Shown here piece by piece: positions 3,388-59,901 of a stretch of DNA of 60,731 nt. The notes beneath the pieces were generated by a model. It saw nothing but the letters and a program-made list of their open reading frames with translations. It was not told the DNA's origin and searched no databases. The stretch lies in the IMG/VR virus record IMGVR_UViG_3300045988_115457. One strand, given 5' to 3'. The stretch is from a virus. Each line of letters begins with the position of its first letter. The first letter of the stretch is position 1. The position numbers and the translations under genes are program-made.

Positions 3388-3538
3388 TGGTGATGGCAGG
3401 ATTCGAACCTGCATGATAGGAGTTATTTTTGCTGTTACATTTAAAACAGCCATGCCCGTTTATTTTTACAACCTTAGCCTAGGGTTAACCTATCTATAAA
3501 CATGTCACTTTAGCGTCTACTAATTTCGCCACATCACC
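3388..3538 (-). ncRNA. tRNA-like RNA A (151 nt): class-II tRNA frame with a 100-nt insert in place of the anticodon arm
   Basis: Minus strand: GGTGATG-TG-GCGAAATTAGTAGACGC...[100 nt]...GCAGG-TTCGAAT-CCTGC-CATCACC-A-CCA. Acceptor pairs 7/7, T loop is canonical, CCA is encoded. I found no 5-bp stem with a 7-nt loop. Confidence 0.55.
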
Positions 3539-3775
3539 ATGTTCGCCCGCCAATCTTCACAGACAGGCAGGCTGGGGTAAAAAGGTTAACAAAGCTATCT
3601 TAACAGCTCACTCTTGCGGATTATAGCTCTACCGGTTACAATAGTATCTTCCGTATTGTGAGACAATGTACTTTGTTTAATGCCTATCTGATCTTCGGAC
3701 AAATGCCGGAAGATACCCGTTACCGAACTGAAATAATAGTTCCGCTTTTCGAAGATCAGGTAGACATGGATTACT
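3539..3775 (-). promoter_or_regulatory. structured non-coding leader upstream of tRNA-like A
   Basis: 237 nt without an ORF. Two perfect 10-bp helices (3688-3697/3750-3759 and 3644-3653/3707-3716), all built on ATCTTC/GAAGAT, plus the shared box GTCTGTGAAGAT (3553-3564, minus strand). Confidence 0.35.
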
Positions 3776-4806: not shown

Positions 4807-5286
4807 TTACTTTTTAAATGTTATACTATACGATGTTGTACTTTGTTTAGATGGAGGATTTAAGGTAAAAACCTCTCCACTATCTTCATCAATTTCCGCT
4901 TTAGGTTTTGAAATTGCTTTTAAATATTCCTCCCTTTCTTTACATTGCTGTTCTATATATTCCCTTTGTTTAATAAGACGATTATAAACTGGATCGTTGC
5001 AAACGGAATAATCATATTTTATACCTGTTTCTTTTAATTGCAAAATAGCACCATTATAGCATGGACGCTCTCCTTTCCCATACTTCTCACATTCTATTAT
5101 AACAGCATCTTTTATTTCTCCACTTTTTAAAAATGCATTAATTGTTTCTGATAGACTTTTCATTTGTATAACCGCATCAATCGGATTTATATCACCATCA
5201 ATAACTTTGGAAATAAAAGCATTAGCCATTTTTTTTTGTTCCGTCTTGGAAGATGGAATTCTGTTGATTATTAGATCATTACTCAT
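4807..5286 (-). CDS. hypothetical protein
   Basis: 159-aa ORF with a 4-nt overlap with the upstream annealase gene. Confidence 0.65.
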   Translation of the reverse strand: MSNDLIINRIPSSKTEQKKMANAFISKVIDGDINPIDAVIQMKSLSETINAFLKSGEIKDAVIIECEKYGKGERPCYNGAILQLKETGIKYDYSVCNDPVYNRLIKQREYIEQQCKEREEYLKAISKPKAEIDEDSGEVFTLNPPSKQSTTSYSITFKK

Positions 5287-6994: not shown

Positions 6995-7030
6995 AAATAA
7001 ATAAAGCGCCTATCCTCACGAACCGACGCT
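6995..7030 (-). terminator. conserved terminator-like module (copy 1): closing GC pairs, CGGTTCGTGAGGATAG loop, U tract
   Basis: Minus strand AGCG-TCGGTTCGTGAGGATAGG-CGCT-TTATTTATTT. Same core at 54890-54924 with covarying closing pairs (GGC/GCC). Confidence 0.35.
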
Positions 7031-7843: not shown

Positions 7844-8086
7844 TTACTTCAATCGAATAATAGAAGTATATCCCGGATGCTCTGTTTTTGAAACCCGGAA
7901 CATCAGATCCATGTTGGCTTTTAATTTATTGACCAGCCTGGCTTCCCGATTTCGCCTAACAGCTTCCGCTTTAATACCGGTGTGCCGTGATTCGTCAAAA
8001 GGCACTTTATAAATATCTCCCACTTTCATCATATCGAATAACTTAGTTGTTCGATATTTTTCGTCAACTATAATTTCTTTTTCCAT
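7844..8086 (-). CDS. hypothetical protein
   Basis: 80-aa ORF in operon context. Confidence 0.55.
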   Translation of the reverse strand: MEKEIIVDEKYRTTKLFDMMKVGDIYKVPFDESRHTGIKAEAVRRNREARLVNKLKANMDLMFRVSKTEHPGYTSIIRLK

Positions 8087-8110
8087 AATATTTTTATTTA
8101 TATTTATTTG

Positions 8111-8179
8111 TGGACAATAAAGGAATCGAACCTTTTTCTCACCCGTGCGAGTGCGTTCTAACCATTAAACTAATTGCCC
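8111..8179 (-). ncRNA. tRNA-like RNA C (69 nt): canonical acceptor, D and T arms, but the anticodon arm is a 5-bp stem capped by a 4-nt loop
   Basis: GGGCAAT-TA-GTTT-AATGGTTA-GAAC-G-CACTC-GCAC-GGGTG-AGAA-AAAGG-TTCGATT-CCTTT-ATTGTCC-A. It is 3 nt short of a tRNA exactly where the anticodon would be. Confidence 0.55.
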
Positions 8180-8266
8180 GTTTGCCTGTATCACGTCAGA
8201 TACAGGACTTAATCGACACGAATTTTCACACATAAAACAGCTATTCTCCCGAACCGCATACCTATA

Positions 8267-8428
8267 TCACTTTTCTCTCTTTAGTCTTTTTTGGTGCTTT
8301 TCCATATATATGGAACATAATGCAAATACAGCAAACGAAAGCCAGAAGACAATATTCATTTCGTTTGCAAGCAATATTGTTAATGCGAACGATATTGCCC
8401 AAATTGCTAATAGTGGAGTACGTTTCAT
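8267..8428 (-). CDS. small membrane protein (53 aa)
   Basis: MKRTPLLAIWAISFALTILLANEMNIVFWLSFAVFALCSIYMEKHQKRLKREK: two hydrophobic helices and a basic tail. Start chosen to avoid tRNA-like B. Confidence 0.4.
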   Translation of the reverse strand: MKRTPLLAIWAISFALTILLANEMNIVFWLSFAVFALCSIYMEKHQKRLKREK

Positions 8429-8453: not shown

Positions 8454-8558
8454 TGGATAAGCCCGGGGTCGAACCGGGAATGGTACATGTTCTAATTTTA
8501 AGGAGTATCGCACTCACACTTCCCTTGTTTCAGCGTCTACCAATTCCGCCACTTATCC
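8454..8558 (-). ncRNA. tRNA-like RNA B (105 nt): class-II tRNA frame with a 54-nt non-canonical middle
   Basis: GGATAAG-TG-GCGGAATTGGTAGACGC...[54 nt]...CCCGG-TTCGACC-CCGGG-CTTATCC-A. Acceptor pairs 7/7. D arm is near-identical to bacterial tRNA-Leu. No recognisable anticodon stem-loop. Confidence 0.55.
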
Positions 8559-8647
8559 TTATTAAAAAGTGCACTATCTTCACAGACCGTACACTATACA
8601 ACACAAACACAAAATAAAAATTACAAAACAAAAATTTGTCTATGGAA

Positions 8648-9043
8648 TTATTTTTCAATATTGATTTTTACACCATTGATTATCCCCAAATGCCTTAAAT
8701 ACACTTCATCTGGATAGACATATCTTTCATCACCGCCATGTATCCTAATGGTATGGGAACCGTCTATATGAATGTCCGTTCTAGCATATCCTGACGCAAA
8801 CTTTTCGCCAACAAATACAAGTCTTTCAATATGAGTAAATGCATCTGAAACGCAAACAATATGGCACCCATCTGTACGAATAAGGTGTTTGTACTCTGGG
8901 AAAATCCTTTCCTTACATTCTTCAAGTTCTCGTACAATATCAACATCACCACCAAATCTTCGACCTTTATGAATCGGTTCTGATAACTCATAAAATCTTT
9001 GATATTTGGTAGTTTCTACCAATTTGGCTATAATTTCTTTCAT
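8648..9043 (-). CDS. hypothetical protein
   Basis: 131-aa ORF. Confidence 0.65.
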   Translation of the reverse strand: MKEIIAKLVETTKYQRFYELSEPIHKGRRFGGDVDIVRELEECKERIFPEYKHLIRTDGCHIVCVSDAFTHIERLVFVGEKFASGYARTDIHIDGSHTIRIHGGDERYVYPDEVYLRHLGIINGVKINIEK

Positions 9044-9412
9044 TTTTATAAATTTAAAGTGGTTGTGTCCTACCCGATTCTCGCTATCGGCTGCCGTTCA
9101 ATCCGTCAGTAGGGCTATATTGTAATCAGCGTACGGACGCCTAACCCCGTTTTCTTACTGATAAAGACGATGTTTTTCAGACTGATTTTTTTTCGATATA
9201 TTACTTACTCACGTTGCTTCCTTCCGCTCATATCATCGCTGGTTGGCTATTACGCTATACTCCGCATCGGCTATACTGCTTATCTGCGCAGGCTACTTTA
9301 ACGTGCCCTGAACACGGCTTCATTTTTGAGGGTTAAGCCTCCCATCCCGAATTAGGATTCATCGGTTTACCGTTGTGCTCCGAAAGCGTTTCGCTCGCTT
9401 CTTTCGTAGATT
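9044..9412 (-). other. 369-bp non-coding, relatively GC-rich region (structured RNA or replication origin candidate)
   Basis: No ORF in any frame. Local helices (e.g. CGAAAG.../...CTTTCG, CCGAT-AGCGAGA-ATCGG), three GGCTA(T)(T)AC direct repeats (9244-9300) and a T8/A-T tract (9186-9210). Confidence 0.3.
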
Positions 9413-10559: not shown

Positions 10560-10752
10560 AACAATAAAAATAAAGCGACCAACTCCAAAGTTGCGGTTGG
10601 AAAGGTCTAATAAAACGAAATACCGCAATATATAGTTATTAAAATAAAAATATCCGCAATAGGTTGCAGCTACTACGGATACCATATATTAAACCTCTTG
10701 TGAGGAAAGTTTAACCACTTTGTCTCTGTAACATCTGCAACTTGTTACGATG

Positions 10753-10787
10753 CAAAGATACAGAAATAAATTCAGTATGACAACAAA
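10753..10787 (-). promoter_or_regulatory. candidate early (leftward) promoter, Bacteroides -33/-7 type, overlapping the repressor start codon
   Basis: Minus strand TTTG (10787-10784), 23 nt, then TATCTTTG (10760-10753). Flanked by TTGCGG/CCGCAA/CTGCAA half-site repeats at 10586-10745. Confidence 0.35.
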
Positions 10788-11280
10788 AGATAGATTAATA
10801 ACATTTCTTGCATATATAAATATAAGTCAAGGAAAATTCGAAAAGGGGGTTGGTTTATCAACTGGTTTTGTTAATAATGTAGGAGACAGTATAAGAAAAT
10901 CTACTCTTGATAAAATCTCCTCTGTATATCCTGAATTAAATACAGCATGGCTACTCACAGGCGTTGGAAATATGATAAATGAAAATAAAAACAACGTAGG
11001 AAGAGACAACTATGGTGTGCAAGGAAACGGTTCTCAAAATATTTCAGGCAACATGGTCAACGTAACTATGCCCGAATCCGGTACACAAAAAATTATTAAG
11101 CCCACTGGAGAAGTTGAAATACAGCGACTAGACCCAAGCGACAAATCAAACTCGGGAGAGCTCGATAGGCTACAACAGCGTATTCAGGATTTAGAAAGAA
11201 TTATATCTGAAAAAGACGCTACAATAAAGTCTAAGGATGATTTAATATGTGTTTTAAAAGATATGCTCAATAGGCAGTAG
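10777..11280 (+). CDS. CI-like HTH repressor with a coiled-coil C-terminus
   Basis: MTTKDRLITFLAYINISQGKFEKGVGLSTGFVNN...WLLTGVGNM (XRE-type HTH typical of Bacteroidales prophage repressors). Same strand as, and upstream of, the integrase. Confidence 0.65.
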   Translation: MTTKDRLITFLAYINISQGKFEKGVGLSTGFVNNVGDSIRKSTLDKISSVYPELNTAWLLTGVGNMINENKNNVGRDNYGVQGNGSQNISGNMVNVTMPESGTQKIIKPTGEVEIQRLDPSDKSNSGELDRLQQRIQDLERIISEKDATIKSKDDLICVLKDMLNRQ

Positions 11281-11467: not shown

Positions 11468-12742
11468 ATGAATATAAAAAGAAACTGCATATTCCTTTTA
11501 GACAAAGAGAAAGACAAACTGGATGCAAAAATTCGCTACAGGATAAAGTGGGACGGAAATACGGTTGCATTTAACGTCGGGCATCGTATAGACATAGACA
11601 AATGGATACCAGATGCACAGCGATGCAAGAATAACACAACCCATGGAATCAAGAAAACGCATTCCTCTATTATTAATAGGGATATTCAAAAATATCAAGA
11701 TATATGCGATACAGTCTTTTTTTATTTCGAACAGCAAAACATATCTCCAAGTCCTGAAGAATTTAAGAATGAGTTTAACCAAAGGCTTGGCAAAAAAGTG
11801 AAGCCGGAACGGACTATTTTTGAATATCATATAGAGTTTATGATAGAACAAGGTCACGAAAGCCAATGGAGTGAATCCACATACAAAGAGCATAGAACAA
11901 TACAACGTAGACTGAAAGAGTTTGCTCCTAAATTAGAGTTTGAGGATTTAACCCAGAAAGGGCTTTCCAAATTTGTTGACTACCTGCAAACTATACAAGT
12001 CAATTCAAAGAAAAAGGGATTAAAGAATTCTAGTATAAGAAAGAACTTAGACAATTTAAAGTGGTTTCTCCGGTGGGCTACCAATAAAGGATATAACAAA
12101 GAAATGGCTTTTACGACCTTTCAGCCCAAATTGAAGGAGGTTAAGAATACGATCGTTTACCTTACATGGGAAGAATTGATGACGGTATATAATTTCAAGG
12201 CTCCTATAACTTGTTCTCACCTAGAAAAAGTGAAAGACGTATTTTGTTTCTGCTGTTTTACTTCATTGAGATATTCAGACGTTGCAAATCTTAAAAGGAC
12301 AAACGTATTTGAAGATCACATACAGGTAACGACTATCAAGACTTATGAGACATTAAGGATCGAATTAAACGACTATTCAAAAGCAATATTAGAGAAATAT
12401 AAAGACGAGACATACGAAGATAATTTAGCTCTCCCTGTTATATCTAACCAAAAGATGAATGATGGTCTTAAAGAGTTAGGAGAATTATGCGGCATAGATG
12501 AGCCTGTATCTATCACTTATTATAAAGGAGGGGAACGATATGATGAAACTTATAAGAAATACGAGCTTTTGACTACTCACTGCGGAAGAAGGACTTTTAT
12601 AAGCAATGCCATCATGTTAGGTATTTCCCCTGAAATTGTAATGAAATGGACTGGACATGAAGATTACCGAACGATGAAGCCATACATAGCCATCGCGGAC
12701 AAAGCTAAGAAAGATGCGATGGATTTATTCAATAAAAAATAG
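11468..12742 (+). CDS. int: tyrosine-type site-specific integrase (Bacteroides type)
   Basis: Catalytic residues in order: FTSLRYSD (R), HCGRRTF (HxxR), WTGHEDYRTMKPY (H...Y). 424 aa with a long N-terminal arm-binding region. Confidence 0.9.
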   Translation: MNIKRNCIFLLDKEKDKLDAKIRYRIKWDGNTVAFNVGHRIDIDKWIPDAQRCKNNTTHGIKKTHSSIINRDIQKYQDICDTVFFYFEQQNISPSPEEFKNEFNQRLGKKVKPERTIFEYHIEFMIEQGHESQWSESTYKEHRTIQRRLKEFAPKLEFEDLTQKGLSKFVDYLQTIQVNSKKKGLKNSSIRKNLDNLKWFLRWATNKGYNKEMAFTTFQPKLKEVKNTIVYLTWEELMTVYNFKAPITCSHLEKVKDVFCFCCFTSLRYSDVANLKRTNVFEDHIQVTTIKTYETLRIELNDYSKAILEKYKDETYEDNLALPVISNQKMNDGLKELGELCGIDEPVSITYYKGGERYDETYKKYELLTTHCGRRTFISNAIMLGISPEIVMKWTGHEDYRTMKPYIAIADKAKKDAMDLFNKK

Positions 12743-17255: not shown

Positions 17256-17440
17256 TCGGGGGTTCTTTTTACTCTACCCCCAAAAGAGCTGCATTTGTTA
17301 ACGATAACCGGCCTTCTACTTTACCGGATAAACTTAGTGCTTAGTATTAATTAATGTATCATTTTGCCCTCCTTTCTTTATAAACCTTTTTCCAACGGAA
17401 ATTGTTATATAGGTGAAACTTAAACTTTTCATACCGGAAA

Positions 17441-17457
17441 CGGTCTGTGAAGATAGT
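17441..17457 (+). repeat. 17-mer CGGTCTGTGAAGATAGT, exact inverted copy of the box upstream of tRNA-like B (8573-8589)
   Basis: Exact 17/17 match to the reverse complement of 8573-8589. A 12-nt core GTCTGTGAAGAT also lies upstream of tRNA-like A (3553-3564). Confidence 0.8.
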
Positions 17458-17468
17458 TAGTCCGGTAA

Positions 17469-58340: not shown

Positions 58341-58901
58341 CTATTGCCACCTTGTGACTGTTGAAAAATCACAAGGAGAATTAAATTCATTAGTCAATAT
58401 ATACACAGCCTTGTATTCGTTTCTCAAAGTATCACCATGGAATACGATACCGGATATTCCCCTGATAGCTAGATTAAATAAAAGGAAAGGTACTGTTTTG
58501 TCTGACAACTCACCACATACTATCAAATGGTCGTTAGGTTTATAATCCAGAAAGCTAATACTATTCCGGTGATTGTACCAATTCGAGATAAGCATTCCGC
58601 CTGTTCCGGCTGTTGGCTCATAGGTCACTCCGGTATCAGAACCTAATAATTTAGAAACCAAAGCTGAAAGACTTTTAGGAGTAAAATCCTGCTTGTTATT
58701 CTTTCGGTCGGCATGTTCATCTTCAAAGTATTCATGGAACCAATCATAACTGACATCGCATTTGAAATAATCCAAAAAGTCTTTGAATACCTTAATTCGT
58801 TCTTTTTTCTCTCCAAATAAAAGATTCATTATCCGTTCCGGTGCCTGATAACTGTCTGTTATACTCAACATTTCGTTTATATCAGATAATATATTTTTCA
58901 T
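58341..58901 (-). CDS. truncated N6-adenine DNA methylase-like protein (HsdM-type N-terminal half, no NPPF/Y motif)
   Basis: QDFTPKSL (xxFTP), motif I YEPTAGTGGML, NLAIRGISGIVFHGDTL. Where motif IV is expected it reads ILTNEFNSP, and the ORF stops 15 codons later (TAG). Confidence 0.6.
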   Translation of the reverse strand: MKNILSDINEMLSITDSYQAPERIMNLLFGEKKERIKVFKDFLDYFKCDVSYDWFHEYFEDEHADRKNNKQDFTPKSLSALVSKLLGSDTGVTYEPTAGTGGMLISNWYNHRNSISFLDYKPNDHLIVCGELSDKTVPFLLFNLAIRGISGIVFHGDTLRNEYKAVYILTNEFNSPCDFSTVTRWQ

Positions 58902-59901
58902 GGGCTAATTTAACTTCATCATTAGTTGACTGTGCATAAATAGTAGTCGTTTGAATGCTTTCATGACCTAACATTTTTTGCACTTGTTCAATAGGCATTC
59001 CACGTTTCAAAGCAGTAGTAGCGGCTGTCCTCCTGAATCTATGAGGATGAACATTAGGTATACCAGCCTTTTTCCCAAGATTCCGTAACATGATTTCTAC
59101 GGCTCCCTTTGATATACGAGAAAGCTGTTTCGTATCTTTTATCTGCGAACACATACCCTCATAATCCGACAAGAACAAAGCTTCCAAAGTGTCTGTCCGA
59201 GAATTAATATATTCCTGTAGAGCTATTTTACATCGAGCGGACAAGTATACAGTGCGATATTTTCTGCCCTTCCCTAATACATCCACTTGACCGTTTACCC
59301 AATCAACATCAGCCCGATTGACATTCGTCATTTCAGAAACACGACAACCGGTGGAAAAAAGAAACTCTATTATAGCTCTGTTTCTTTTATTTTTAGTCAT
59401 TGCCCTAAGATTCTCCATATCATCCTCACTCAAAGGCTTCTTTAATTTCTTCACTTGCCTTACACCTTTAATCCGAAGAATCGGATTCCTTTCAATTATA
59501 CCCTCCTCTGTACACCAAGTAAAAAAACTACTTAAAGTCCTACGGATATTATTCAATGTGTTGTCACTGCATTTATTTATCTTCTTGTAAGCTAAATACA
59601 CACGAATATCATCTGTTACGATCTCTTTTATATGCTTCCCAACTTGAAGGATAAAGGCTCTCAATATGACACGGTAATAGTCCAAGGAACTTTGGCACAA
59701 TCCTTCGACGGCTTTAGCTATGAAGAATTTACTAATAATCTGCGAATCGGAGTTATCATAGACCACAACCGATGTTTCCTTTTCTGTTATATCATAATTC
59801 CTTAAGCAAAATGATATAGAATCGATCACTGTAGGAATTTCCTCATTAGGAATTTTGCCAAATAAGGTATCACGTATTTCACTCAATATGTACTCTTTCA
59901 T
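58882..59901 (-). CDS. XerC/D-like tyrosine recombinase (second recombinase)
   Basis: STGCRVSE (R), GKGRK (K), HPHRFRRT (HxxR), LGHESIQTTTIY (H...Y). Overlaps the methylase-like gene by 20 nt. Confidence 0.9.
   Translation of the reverse strand: MKEYILSEIRDTLFGKIPNEEIPTVIDSISFCLRNYDITEKETSVVVYDNSDSQIISKFFIAKAVEGLCQSSLDYYRVILRAFILQVGKHIKEIVTDDIRVYLAYKKINKCSDNTLNNIRRTLSSFFTWCTEEGIIERNPILRIKGVRQVKKLKKPLSEDDMENLRAMTKNKRNRAIIEFLFSTGCRVSEMTNVNRADVDWVNGQVDVLGKGRKYRTVYLSARCKIALQEYINSRTDTLEALFLSDYEGMCSQIKDTKQLSRISKGAVEIMLRNLGKKAGIPNVHPHRFRRTAATTALKRGMPIEQVQKMLGHESIQTTTIYAQSTNDEVKLAHEKYII

Follow-up and report, generated by a model that had tools for sequence, protein, structure and literature searches.

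RNase P, RNase Z, the CCA-adding enzyme, EF-Tu and AlaRS all recognise a tRNA through its acceptor/T-arm half. The tRNA-like RNAs mascRNA, from the MALAT1 transcript, and its counterpart in MEN-beta have a poorly conserved anticodon loop, are cut by RNase P and RNase Z and receive CCA, and the new 3' end of the upstream MALAT1 RNA is protected by an adjacent structure. In plant RNA viruses, the tRNA-like structures of TYMV, BMV and TMV are substrates of the CCA-adding enzyme, aminoacyl-tRNA synthetases and RNase P in vitro, while species 1 and 2 of phage T4 (rnaC and rnaD) are small stable RNAs that are co-transcribed with tRNAs and matured by tRNA-processing enzymes. The use of tRNAs as punctuation is known to us from mitochondria and from MALAT1, and we know of no systematic cassette system of this kind in phages. 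In plant mitochondria the t-elements are non-canonical tRNA-like sequences with a conserved T arm (GGTTCRANYCC) whose ends coincide with mRNA ends; they direct cleavage of mRNAs by RNase P and RNase Z, and the excised pieces gain non-templated C/A (PMC1920247).

We report here on element C, which is located in a viral DNA of 60,731 nt (IMG/VR record IMGVR_UViG_3300045988_115457; the whole stretch analysed is referred to as the window). Element C is a complete tRNA body without an anticodon triplet, far beyond what chance would give, and it is one of many tRNA-like cassettes that do not decode and lie in the early operons of temperate Bacteroidales-type phages. We place it as a kind of tRNA-like processing element or tRNA mimic, in a form of which, as for the hairpin 1 motif of the same cassettes, a literature search found no published description.

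The window looks like the genome of a temperate siphovirus-type phage, with genes for terminase, SPP1-type portal, holin and amidase, and also antirepressors, two integrases and a repressor-like gene. A DUF2693-FD RNA, DUF3853, a Phage_int_SAM_5 integrase and the single GenBank phage match, a Bacteroides phage, suggest that its host belongs to the Bacteroidales. Element C is positioned on the coding strand of a leftward early operon between two small ORFs, its start being 88 nt past the stop codon of one (53 aa) and its end 24 nt ahead of the ATG of the other (80 aa; Table 1). Pfam and PHROGs scans of the ORFs near C and of most larger ORFs, outside two 10-ORF batches (with the two largest ORFs, of 1922 and 1356 aa) and many of the small ones, detected no aaRS-like, Fem/MprF-like, L/F-transferase, RNA ligase, CCA-adding or SmpB-like protein; many of the ORFs covered had no family match. 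That C might be an attP remnant was rejected, as it has its two acceptor strands, its variants differ in their T arms and the tyrosine integrase gene (11468-12742) is more than 3 kb away. An Rfam match to mir-1175 at 4842-4888 is a false positive inside an ORF.

Table 1. Position of element C, its parts and surrounding features in the window.
Feature	Position	Strand	Basis or remark
Element A, aberrant tRNA-like	3388-3538	-	Rfam 35.3 bits; ~97 nt in place of anticodon arm
Downstream 80-aa ORF (MEKEIIVD...), no family match	7844..8086	-	Homologues in L011 (83%) and L012 (43%)
C74 and ~24-nt AU-rich leader; predicted 5' end of downstream mRNA after a cut at the discriminator	8087..8110	-	
Element C, tRNA-like RNA, 69 nt	8111..8179	-	Sequence, ARAGORN, Rfam, 18-variant covariation, MFE fold
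C, discriminator A73	8111	-	
C, acceptor 3' strand	8112-8118	-	U70 = 8114
C, T arm	8119-8135	-	
C, variable region	8136-8139	-	
C, anticodon-arm stem	8149-8153 / 8140-8144	-	5 bp
C, anticodon-arm loop GCAC, 4 nt	8145-8148	-	
C, D arm	8155-8170	-	
C, acceptor 5' strand	8173-8179	-	G3 = 8177
Predicted RNase P junction	C-1 (8180) / G+1 (8179)	-	
Linker CAAAC directly 5' of G1	8180..8184	-	Same linker before C, D, E and F types
Hairpin 2, 8-bp stem (CCUGUAUC/GAUACAGG), 6-nt loop	8185..8206	-	Covariation among 13 variants
Hairpin 1 variant copy GC-GG-UUC-GGGA-GAA-UA-GC, 3-bp inner stem and GNRA tetraloop	8240..8257	-	Motif match
Upstream 53-aa ORF (MKRTPLLAIWAIS..., hydrophobic), between elements B and C	8267..8428	-	
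Element B, aberrant tRNA-like	8454-8558	-	tRNA-Leu-like D arm
Repressor-like gene	10750-11280	+	
Tyrosine integrase	11468-12742	+	
Second integrase	58882-59901	-	

The minus strand of 8111-8179 reads GGGCAAT-TA-GTTT-AATGGTTA-GAAC-G-CACTC-GCAC-GGGTG-AGAA-AAAGG-TTCGATT-CCTTT-ATTGTCC-A (69 nt), which is identical to the parse in a first-pass annotation of this DNA. That annotation had described canonical acceptor, D and T arms together with an anticodon arm of 5 bp and 4 nt, 3 nt short exactly at the anticodon; all four helices are present, with 98.7% of cells paired in the alignment of C variants compared with 40-50% when the partners are slid, and the short arm is kept in 18 of 18 variants. It had also seen the G-U pair of the acceptor stem, but missed both its position at 3:70, where it makes up an alanine set together with A73, and the membership of C in a cassette. 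A cloverleaf with a tetraloop-capped 5-bp anticodon stem, a fold it had proposed to check, is the minimum free energy (MFE) structure of C and of three diverged variants folded alone. With flanks (161 nt, of which 90 nt are 5' flank) the MFE structure is not the cloverleaf and z = -0.17, and hence thermodynamics alone is weak evidence for C.

The Rfam tRNA model (RF00005) aligns with C from end to end (8179..8111; 51.1 bits, gathering score 29, E = 4.7e-8 for the window), having 9 nt at the tip of the anticodon arm where C has 6. ARAGORN reports 8110-8179 on the minus strand as the sole 'tRNA' of the window and calls it 'tRNA-???' with a 2-nt 'anticodon (ca)'. The features needed for maturation are intact, i.e. 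a 7-bp acceptor stem on a 5-bp T stem, a canonical T loop (TTCGATT), a D loop (AATGGTTA) with GG (G18G19) and A73; 3' of C only C74 is encoded and CCA is not. C has neither the 7-nt anticodon loop with U33 nor the 3-nt anticodon and purine 37 of a canonical tRNA, and since the three anticodon nucleotides are absent it cannot read codons.

We identified 18 distinct variants of C in approximately 75 locus records from IMG/VR and metagenomes, largely of the human gut (an exact 31-nt search for C matched five IMG/VR contigs). The search patterns were anchored in the upstream linker or in the 5' half only and never in the anticodon arm, and all 18 variants have the 14-nt arm (5 bp plus 4 nt), the exact architecture that the first-pass annotation had suggested looking for in related phages. 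Homologues with a normal loop, which it had named as the observation that would count against its proposal, did not appear: no phage homologue found has a 7-nt loop. Its claim that C does not decode gains support from the loop itself, which reads GCAC, TCAC, TCAT, GTAT or GTAC; such drift of the letters between close relatives argues against a decoding role. The anticodon stem has a compensatory C-G to U-A exchange in seven of the 18 variants, and the covariation score of the C alignment was reached by none of 500 shuffles. Outside these records, the 5'-anchored C pattern gave 13 matches in representative bacterial genomes, all of them chance matches in unrelated taxa lacking a tRNA-like fold, and no host or prophage copy of C was identified in these genomes. 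Neither a BLAST search of GenBank phages with C plus flanks and with a diverged C variant nor a search of E. coli genomes gave a match.

C is embedded in a recurrent architecture, present around tRNA-like elements in dozens of contigs: a GNRA-capped hairpin 1, a spacer of 25-35 nt, hairpin 2, CAAAC, the tRNA-like element, C74, an AU-rich leader and ATG. Hairpin 2 is 100% paired in 13 variants with two compensatory pairs, and its covariation score was reached by 0 of 500 shuffles. The hairpin 1 copy near C starts 10 nt past the stop codon of the 53-aa ORF, and upstream of element B hairpin 1 has a variable outer stem below the conserved top ACGG-UCU-GYGA-AGA-UAGU (3-bp inner stem, GNRA tetraloop); among the copies the inner stem is UCU/AGA or UUC/GAA and the loop GUGA, GCGA or GGGA. 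A relaxed motif, GKTYYGNGARRATW, has four matches in the window (0.18 expected). A fifth, divergent copy was read by eye at 3545-3572. The 18-nt core of hairpin 1 occurs in at least 120 IMG/VR contigs and its commonest context is antisense to the flanking genes; in other phages genuine tRNAs (Glu-UUC, Leu-UAA) follow it. Every tRNA-like element that we list is followed by C, an AU-rich leader and ATG, the distance to the ATG being approximately 23-27 nt in many cassettes and ranging overall from 1 nt (slot A, the slot of element A) to 14-27 nt, and the ORFs downstream of the cassettes are unrelated to one another. We also considered the ends of Logan contigs as processing sites; two contigs start at 8458, in the 3' strand of B, which is best explained as an assembly break at a variable cassette.

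Scanning the collected loci (approximately 2 Mb) for a perfect 5-bp T stem, a TTCRANY loop and a perfect 7-bp acceptor stem gave 166 unique elements, 50 of which are standard tRNAs; the non-standard set analysed comprises 64 elements of at most 135 nt without an embedded standard tRNA. At least seven body types can be told apart among the non-standard elements. One is C itself; D (80-83 nt), E (72 nt) and F (62-63 nt) each lack a normal D/anticodon region, and the others are G (98 nt), B1 (82 nt, with a 16-nt 'anticodon' loop) and Leu-like bodies (98-151 nt, with large inserts). A second and unrelated family with a 5-bp stem and tetraloop (L047/L130) has the acceptor strand GCCGGGA, U73 and no G3·U70, and a tRNA-Ser-like gene with an 8-nt loop is present in L048. 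Different bodies are swapped within the same slot between conserved flanks, and all that they have in common is the acceptor/T-arm half, with A73 and a C at position 74. Specifically, L011, with an 80-aa protein 83% identical to that of the window, has an F-type element where the window has C, and L012 (43% identical) has no element in this place. Rfam MIR matches in L011 were rejected, since they correspond to a GGCTAT-type tandem repeat. Slot A keeps the order 'CCA-c-ATG' even where one tRNA-like body has been exchanged for another.

The acceptor-stem G-U pair is the feature that links C to several of these bodies. A G·U at 3:70 is present in 37 of the 64 unique non-standard elements (59%), compared with 3-5% at each of the other six acceptor positions; the count refers to unique sequences and not to independent lineages, and two of the collecting patterns forced G3 while none constrained position 70. 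Only two of the 50 standard tRNAs have it, both of them B1-type elements that ARAGORN calls tRNA-Arg. G3·U70 is found in families C, D, E, F, G and B1 and is kept in three different flank contexts, while pairs 4:69 to 7:66 vary freely with compensation, and A73 is invariant in the G3·U70 families. Among the C variants, 17 of 18 have G·U at 3:70 and 17 of 18 have G2-C71. G3-C70 replaces the pair in one C variant (L172) and one E variant (L121), and the B1 family alternates between G3·U70 and A3-U70. Single phages, e.g. L144, L111 and L042, carry two or three different G3·U70 elements.

In bacteria the identity of tRNA-Ala is set by A73, G2-C71, G3·U70, G4-C69 and G20 with no anticodon triplet, and that of tRNA-Val by A73, G3-C70 and U4-A69, no core element being listed, together with A35 and C36 of the anticodon (PMC9976931). 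Leu identity depends on A73 and tertiary elements, and Ser identity on G73, C72, G2-C71 and R4-Y69 in the acceptor stem, C11-G24, a large variable arm and G30-C40 in the anticodon stem; for neither is there an anticodon-triplet determinant (PMC9976931). C lacks the minor Ala determinants G4-C69 and G20, its 4:69 pair being invariably C4-G69 and its position 20 a U. When the 5' half of C (GGGCAGTTAGTTCA..GGTTAGAACGC) was used as a pattern in metagenomes, it retrieved C-type elements, a few chance matches that are not tRNAs and otherwise only tRNA-Val genes, with anticodons UAC, GAC and CAC and all with G3-C70. On this ground C looks like a tRNA-Val-type body that would have lost its anticodon triplet and undergone a C70-to-U change, and these two changes would thereby have removed Val identity and conferred Ala identity. 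Most of the other aberrant families are Leu- or Ser-like, i.e. they resemble tRNAs whose bacterial identity sets lack an anticodon-triplet determinant, which fits the idea that charging matters.

Taken together, we propose that C serves as punctuation in the transcript, that host RNase P and RNase Z cut it out and that its product does not decode and is probably a substrate of AlaRS, and we give this combined reading about an even chance. For its two parts, which are not mutually exclusive, we lean modestly towards excision from the transcript, and regard alanylation as evenly balanced between being right and being wrong. The position in an operon, the conserved flanks and the interchange with real tRNAs point to a role in cis as a processing signal, and this genomic context strengthens the plausible recognition of C by RNase P, RNase Z and the CCA-adding enzyme. 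According to the model, C would be co-transcribed with its neighbours in the leftward early operon, and host RNase P would cut between C-1 (8180) and G+1 (8179), so that the upstream RNA would end five nucleotides after the 8-bp hairpin 2, which would then form the 3' end of this fragment. RNase Z, or an equivalent activity, would cut at or just past A73 (8111) and free the 80-aa ORF with an AU-rich leader of approximately 24 nt, expected to suit translation in Bacteroidetes, which to our knowledge does not rely on Shine-Dalgarno pairing. In slot A, 'CCA-c-ATG' implies that cleavage at the discriminator would give a near-leaderless mRNA, as in mitochondrial punctuation. The released 69-mer would gain CCA and would probably be alanylated by host AlaRS, because G1-C72, G2-C71, G3·U70 and A73 are present and AlaRS ignores the anticodon. 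Neither part suffices alone: punctuation does not explain G3·U70, nor why C has kept a covarying D arm and anticodon stem, and alanylation does not explain why single phages have two or three different G3·U70 elements. Also speaking against the model are the A3-U70 pairs of B1, the G3-C70 of L172 and L121, C4-G69 and U20 in C, the lack of an encoded CCA, the U73 tetraloop family of L047/L130 and the antisense orientation of hairpin 1 in its commonest context.

Of the other explanations, the main rival takes C to be a trans-acting, charged, non-decoding alanine acceptor, such that the RNA product is the point and processing merely its biogenesis; alanyl-C might then act off decoding through capture of AlaRS or EF-Tu, through a tag-less, tmRNA-like action on the ribosome or as an alanine donor to a transferase. 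The specific conservation of G3·U70, A73 and G2-C71 across unrelated bodies speaks for it, as do the apparent identity switch on a tRNA-Val-like scaffold, the preponderance of Leu/Ser-like bodies without anticodon-triplet determinants among the other aberrant elements and the full L-shape and full-length anticodon stem kept in C. It is weakened by the presence of several Ala-type elements per phage, the tolerance of A3-U70 in B1, the missing minor determinants and the L047/L130 family, which has the same design without the alanine pair; moreover, no partner enzyme was recognised in the window among the ORFs covered by Pfam/PHROGs, and C keeps an anticodon stem, unlike the SmpB-dependent tRNA-like domain. 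We treat it as a tentative alternative that is rather less likely to be right than wrong. Equally tentative is its extension to the whole set, by which gut Bacteroidales phages may encode chargeable non-decoding RNAs, with alanine identity installed or retained on an anticodon-deleted Val-like body and with Leu-like sister families. If C instead stayed on the mRNA as a 5'-UTR structure in cis, recruiting or positioning a ribosome or regulator for the downstream ORF, the conserved AU-rich leader and the constant spacing to the ATG in many cassettes (approximately 23-27 nt) would be accounted for; this is very improbable, given that the same kinds of element are found 1 nt (slot A) to 14-27 nt from the ATG, that the downstream ORFs are unrelated and that real tRNAs are found in equivalent places.

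A decoy or sponge for tRNA-targeting defences or toxins (anticodon nucleases, toxins that modify the acceptor end or tRNA-binding sensors) would have an intact, conserved tRNA body and lie in an early operon, as C does, and the highly mosaic cassettes are typical of accessory or counter-defence loci. However, no defence or anti-defence gene is linked to C, and neither G3·U70 nor the fixed place ahead of ORFs is accounted for; the version with anticodon nucleases found no support in this analysis, and the nucleases of this type known to us read the anticodon loop, the very part missing from C. We judge the decoy improbable. Reading C as a decaying tRNA pseudogene, or as a normal tRNA gene with a 3-nt assembly or sequencing deletion, draws on its resemblance to a tRNA and on nothing further, and is scarcely credible considering that the same 14-nt arm recurs in approximately 75 locus records from many independent assemblies, that the stem has compensatory changes and that no relative has a 7-nt loop. 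The 'anticodon (ca)' printed by ARAGORN could be taken to mean that C decodes with an unconventional loop, e.g. a 6-nt loop with a doublet anticodon, but the 'anticodon' becomes ca, ta or gt among close relatives and, because the loop letters differ in this way, no fixed codon can be read; no case of productive decoding through an anticodon loop of 4 to 6 nt is known to us, and this possibility is likewise extremely slight.

If the proposed model of excision and alanylation is correct, temperate gut phages have their early polycistronic RNAs cut at 'disarmed' tRNAs, which serve them as modular punctuation, and a simple set of sequence features would be at hand for annotating many of the 'tRNA-???' calls in viromes. 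The alanine pair kept on anticodon-less bodies raises the question of whether there are viral aminoacyl-RNAs that never enter decoding, and what purpose they serve; were C used in its alanylated form, it would have a function off the genetic code. Finally, the GNRA-capped hairpin 1, which lies ahead of tRNAs, tRNA mimics and ORFs in at least 120 viral contigs, is in our view a separate regulatory element.

Comparing C with known systems, its 5' and 3' ends form an acceptor stem and not a Ro-binding stem, which sets it apart from the YrlA module, and the Rfam families of bacterial Y RNA (YrlA) gave no match in the window. With T4 rnaC and rnaD there is no sequence relationship; these are not borne on cassettes ahead of ORFs and have no reported alanine identity. 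The TYMV, BMV and TMV structures are viral tRNA mimics like C, but they stand at the 3' end of RNA genomes, form their acceptor with a pseudoknot and have the identity of Val, Tyr or His; that of TYMV also includes an anticodon mimic. Closer in its acceptor end is the tRNA-like domain of tmRNA, an anticodon-less alanine acceptor with G3·U70, A73, acceptor stem and T arm that is charged by AlaRS; C likewise has G3·U70 and A73, and the D, E and F types resemble this domain also in lacking a normal D/anticodon region. Unlike tmRNA, however, C has no mRNA-like domain, tag ORF or pseudoknots and has an anticodon stem where SmpB would sit. ARAGORN detected no tmRNA in the window, and a permuted-tmRNA Rfam match spanning B to C (20.9 bits versus 47, E = 0.79) was rejected as chance.

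Compared with canonical tRNAs, C thus combines a 5' half that matches metagenomic tRNA-Val genes with an acceptor end that has Ala determinants: it differs from tRNA-Val in its 4-nt anticodon loop and in having G3·U70 instead of G3-C70, and from the listed determinants of bacterial tRNA-Ala in having C4-G69 and U20 instead of G4-C69 and G20. With hairpin 2 upstream, its arrangement resembles that of MALAT1 and mascRNA, although mascRNA is eukaryotic, nuclear and not aminoacylated and has no sequence relationship to C. Like the class of t-elements and mascRNA, C does not decode, has a tRNA-like fold in which acceptor and T arm are conserved, and is situated on the coding strand between mRNA segments. 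Slot A of this phage group is similar to animal mitochondria in that near-leaderless mRNAs are predicted. The closest documented analogue of C is the t-elements, as both are tRNA-likes within longer transcripts beside ORFs; in contrast to these, C is encoded by a phage with a bacterial host, is preceded by two conserved hairpins, and has a full L-shape, an alanine set and a cleavage that is predicted.

The tRNA-like elements lie in cassettes with a hairpin whose conserved top, ACGG-UCU-GYGA-AGA-UAGU, is capped by a GNRA tetraloop; its outer stem is variable and covarying, and its inner stem is either UCU/AGA or UUC/GAA. This hairpin is present on at least 120 IMG/VR contigs (L013-L132), where genuine tRNAs, tRNA mimics and ORFs are all found 3' of it. 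Rfam has no entry for the hairpin and we found no published mention of it. The commonest context is that of the plus-strand copy in the window (see table), which is antisense to the genes on either side and takes up the entire 35-nt intergenic gap, with the next start codon adjoining its stem. Candidate roles for the hairpin are those of a nut/boxB-like site, a signal for processing, a terminator and a site acting at the DNA level.

Coordinates of the features in the window and in related loci
Feature	Source	Position	Strand	Remark
GNRA hairpin	Window	3545-3572	-	
GNRA hairpin	Window	7005-7030	-	
GNRA hairpin	Window	8240-8257	-	
GNRA hairpin	Window	8569-8594	-	
GNRA hairpin	Window	17434-17468	+	
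Element A	Window	3388-3538	-	tRNA-Leu-like body; D arm GCGAAATTAGTAGACGC
Element B	Window	8454-8558	-	tRNA-Leu-like body; D arm GCGGAATTGGTAGACGC
DUF2693-FD RNA	Window	9067-9115	-	Rfam RF02926, 70.9 bits
Tyrosine integrase gene	Window	11468-12742	+	one of two
Tyrosine integrase gene	Window	58882-59901	-	other of two
tRNA-Ser-like gene	L048	3277-3364	-	8-nt anticodon loop (TTGTTTTG)
'Double' tRNA-like element	L031	4708-4839	-	
'Double' tRNA-like element	L047	1712-1846		
Second tRNA-like family	L047	3297-3368		C-like design
Second tRNA-like family	L130	870-941		C-like design

In the aberrant elements A and B the anticodon arm is replaced by 40-100 nt of other sequence, and both have an intact T arm and A73. 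The 3' end of A runs, as CCA-c-ATG, directly into a 55-aa ORF at its start codon. In relatives the flanks are the same and the tRNA-like bodies are exchanged. The DUF2693-FD RNA, also carried by locus L012, is followed 23 nt downstream by a 131-aa ORF (8648-9043) without match in Pfam or PHROGs.

Besides its integrase genes, the window has two antirepressor-type genes (Rha/KilAC) and one Bro-N/KilAC gene. The 80-aa protein encoded downstream of C is also encoded by an ENA scaffold of 60,729 nt, which suggests that the phage genome in the window is complete or nearly so.

Other loci have further aberrant tRNA-like genes. The normal counterpart of the tRNA-Ser-like gene is a tRNA-Ser(GCU) in L014, and in the 'double' elements (131-134 nt) the D arm and the T arm each occur twice within a single acceptor stem. 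Rfam matches to plant microRNAs at L011 4667-4935 were rejected as spurious, being produced by a long tandem repeat of GGCTAT/GGCGAT-type hexamers at this position. The second family, found in L047 and L130, has a 5-bp anticodon stem (CATGT/ACATG) closed by a 4-nt loop (TTCT or TTCC), the acceptor strand GCCGGGA and discriminator U73, and lacks G3·U70; it shares with the 69-nt element C the design of a 5-bp anticodon stem with a 4-nt loop, but the two families are unrelated.
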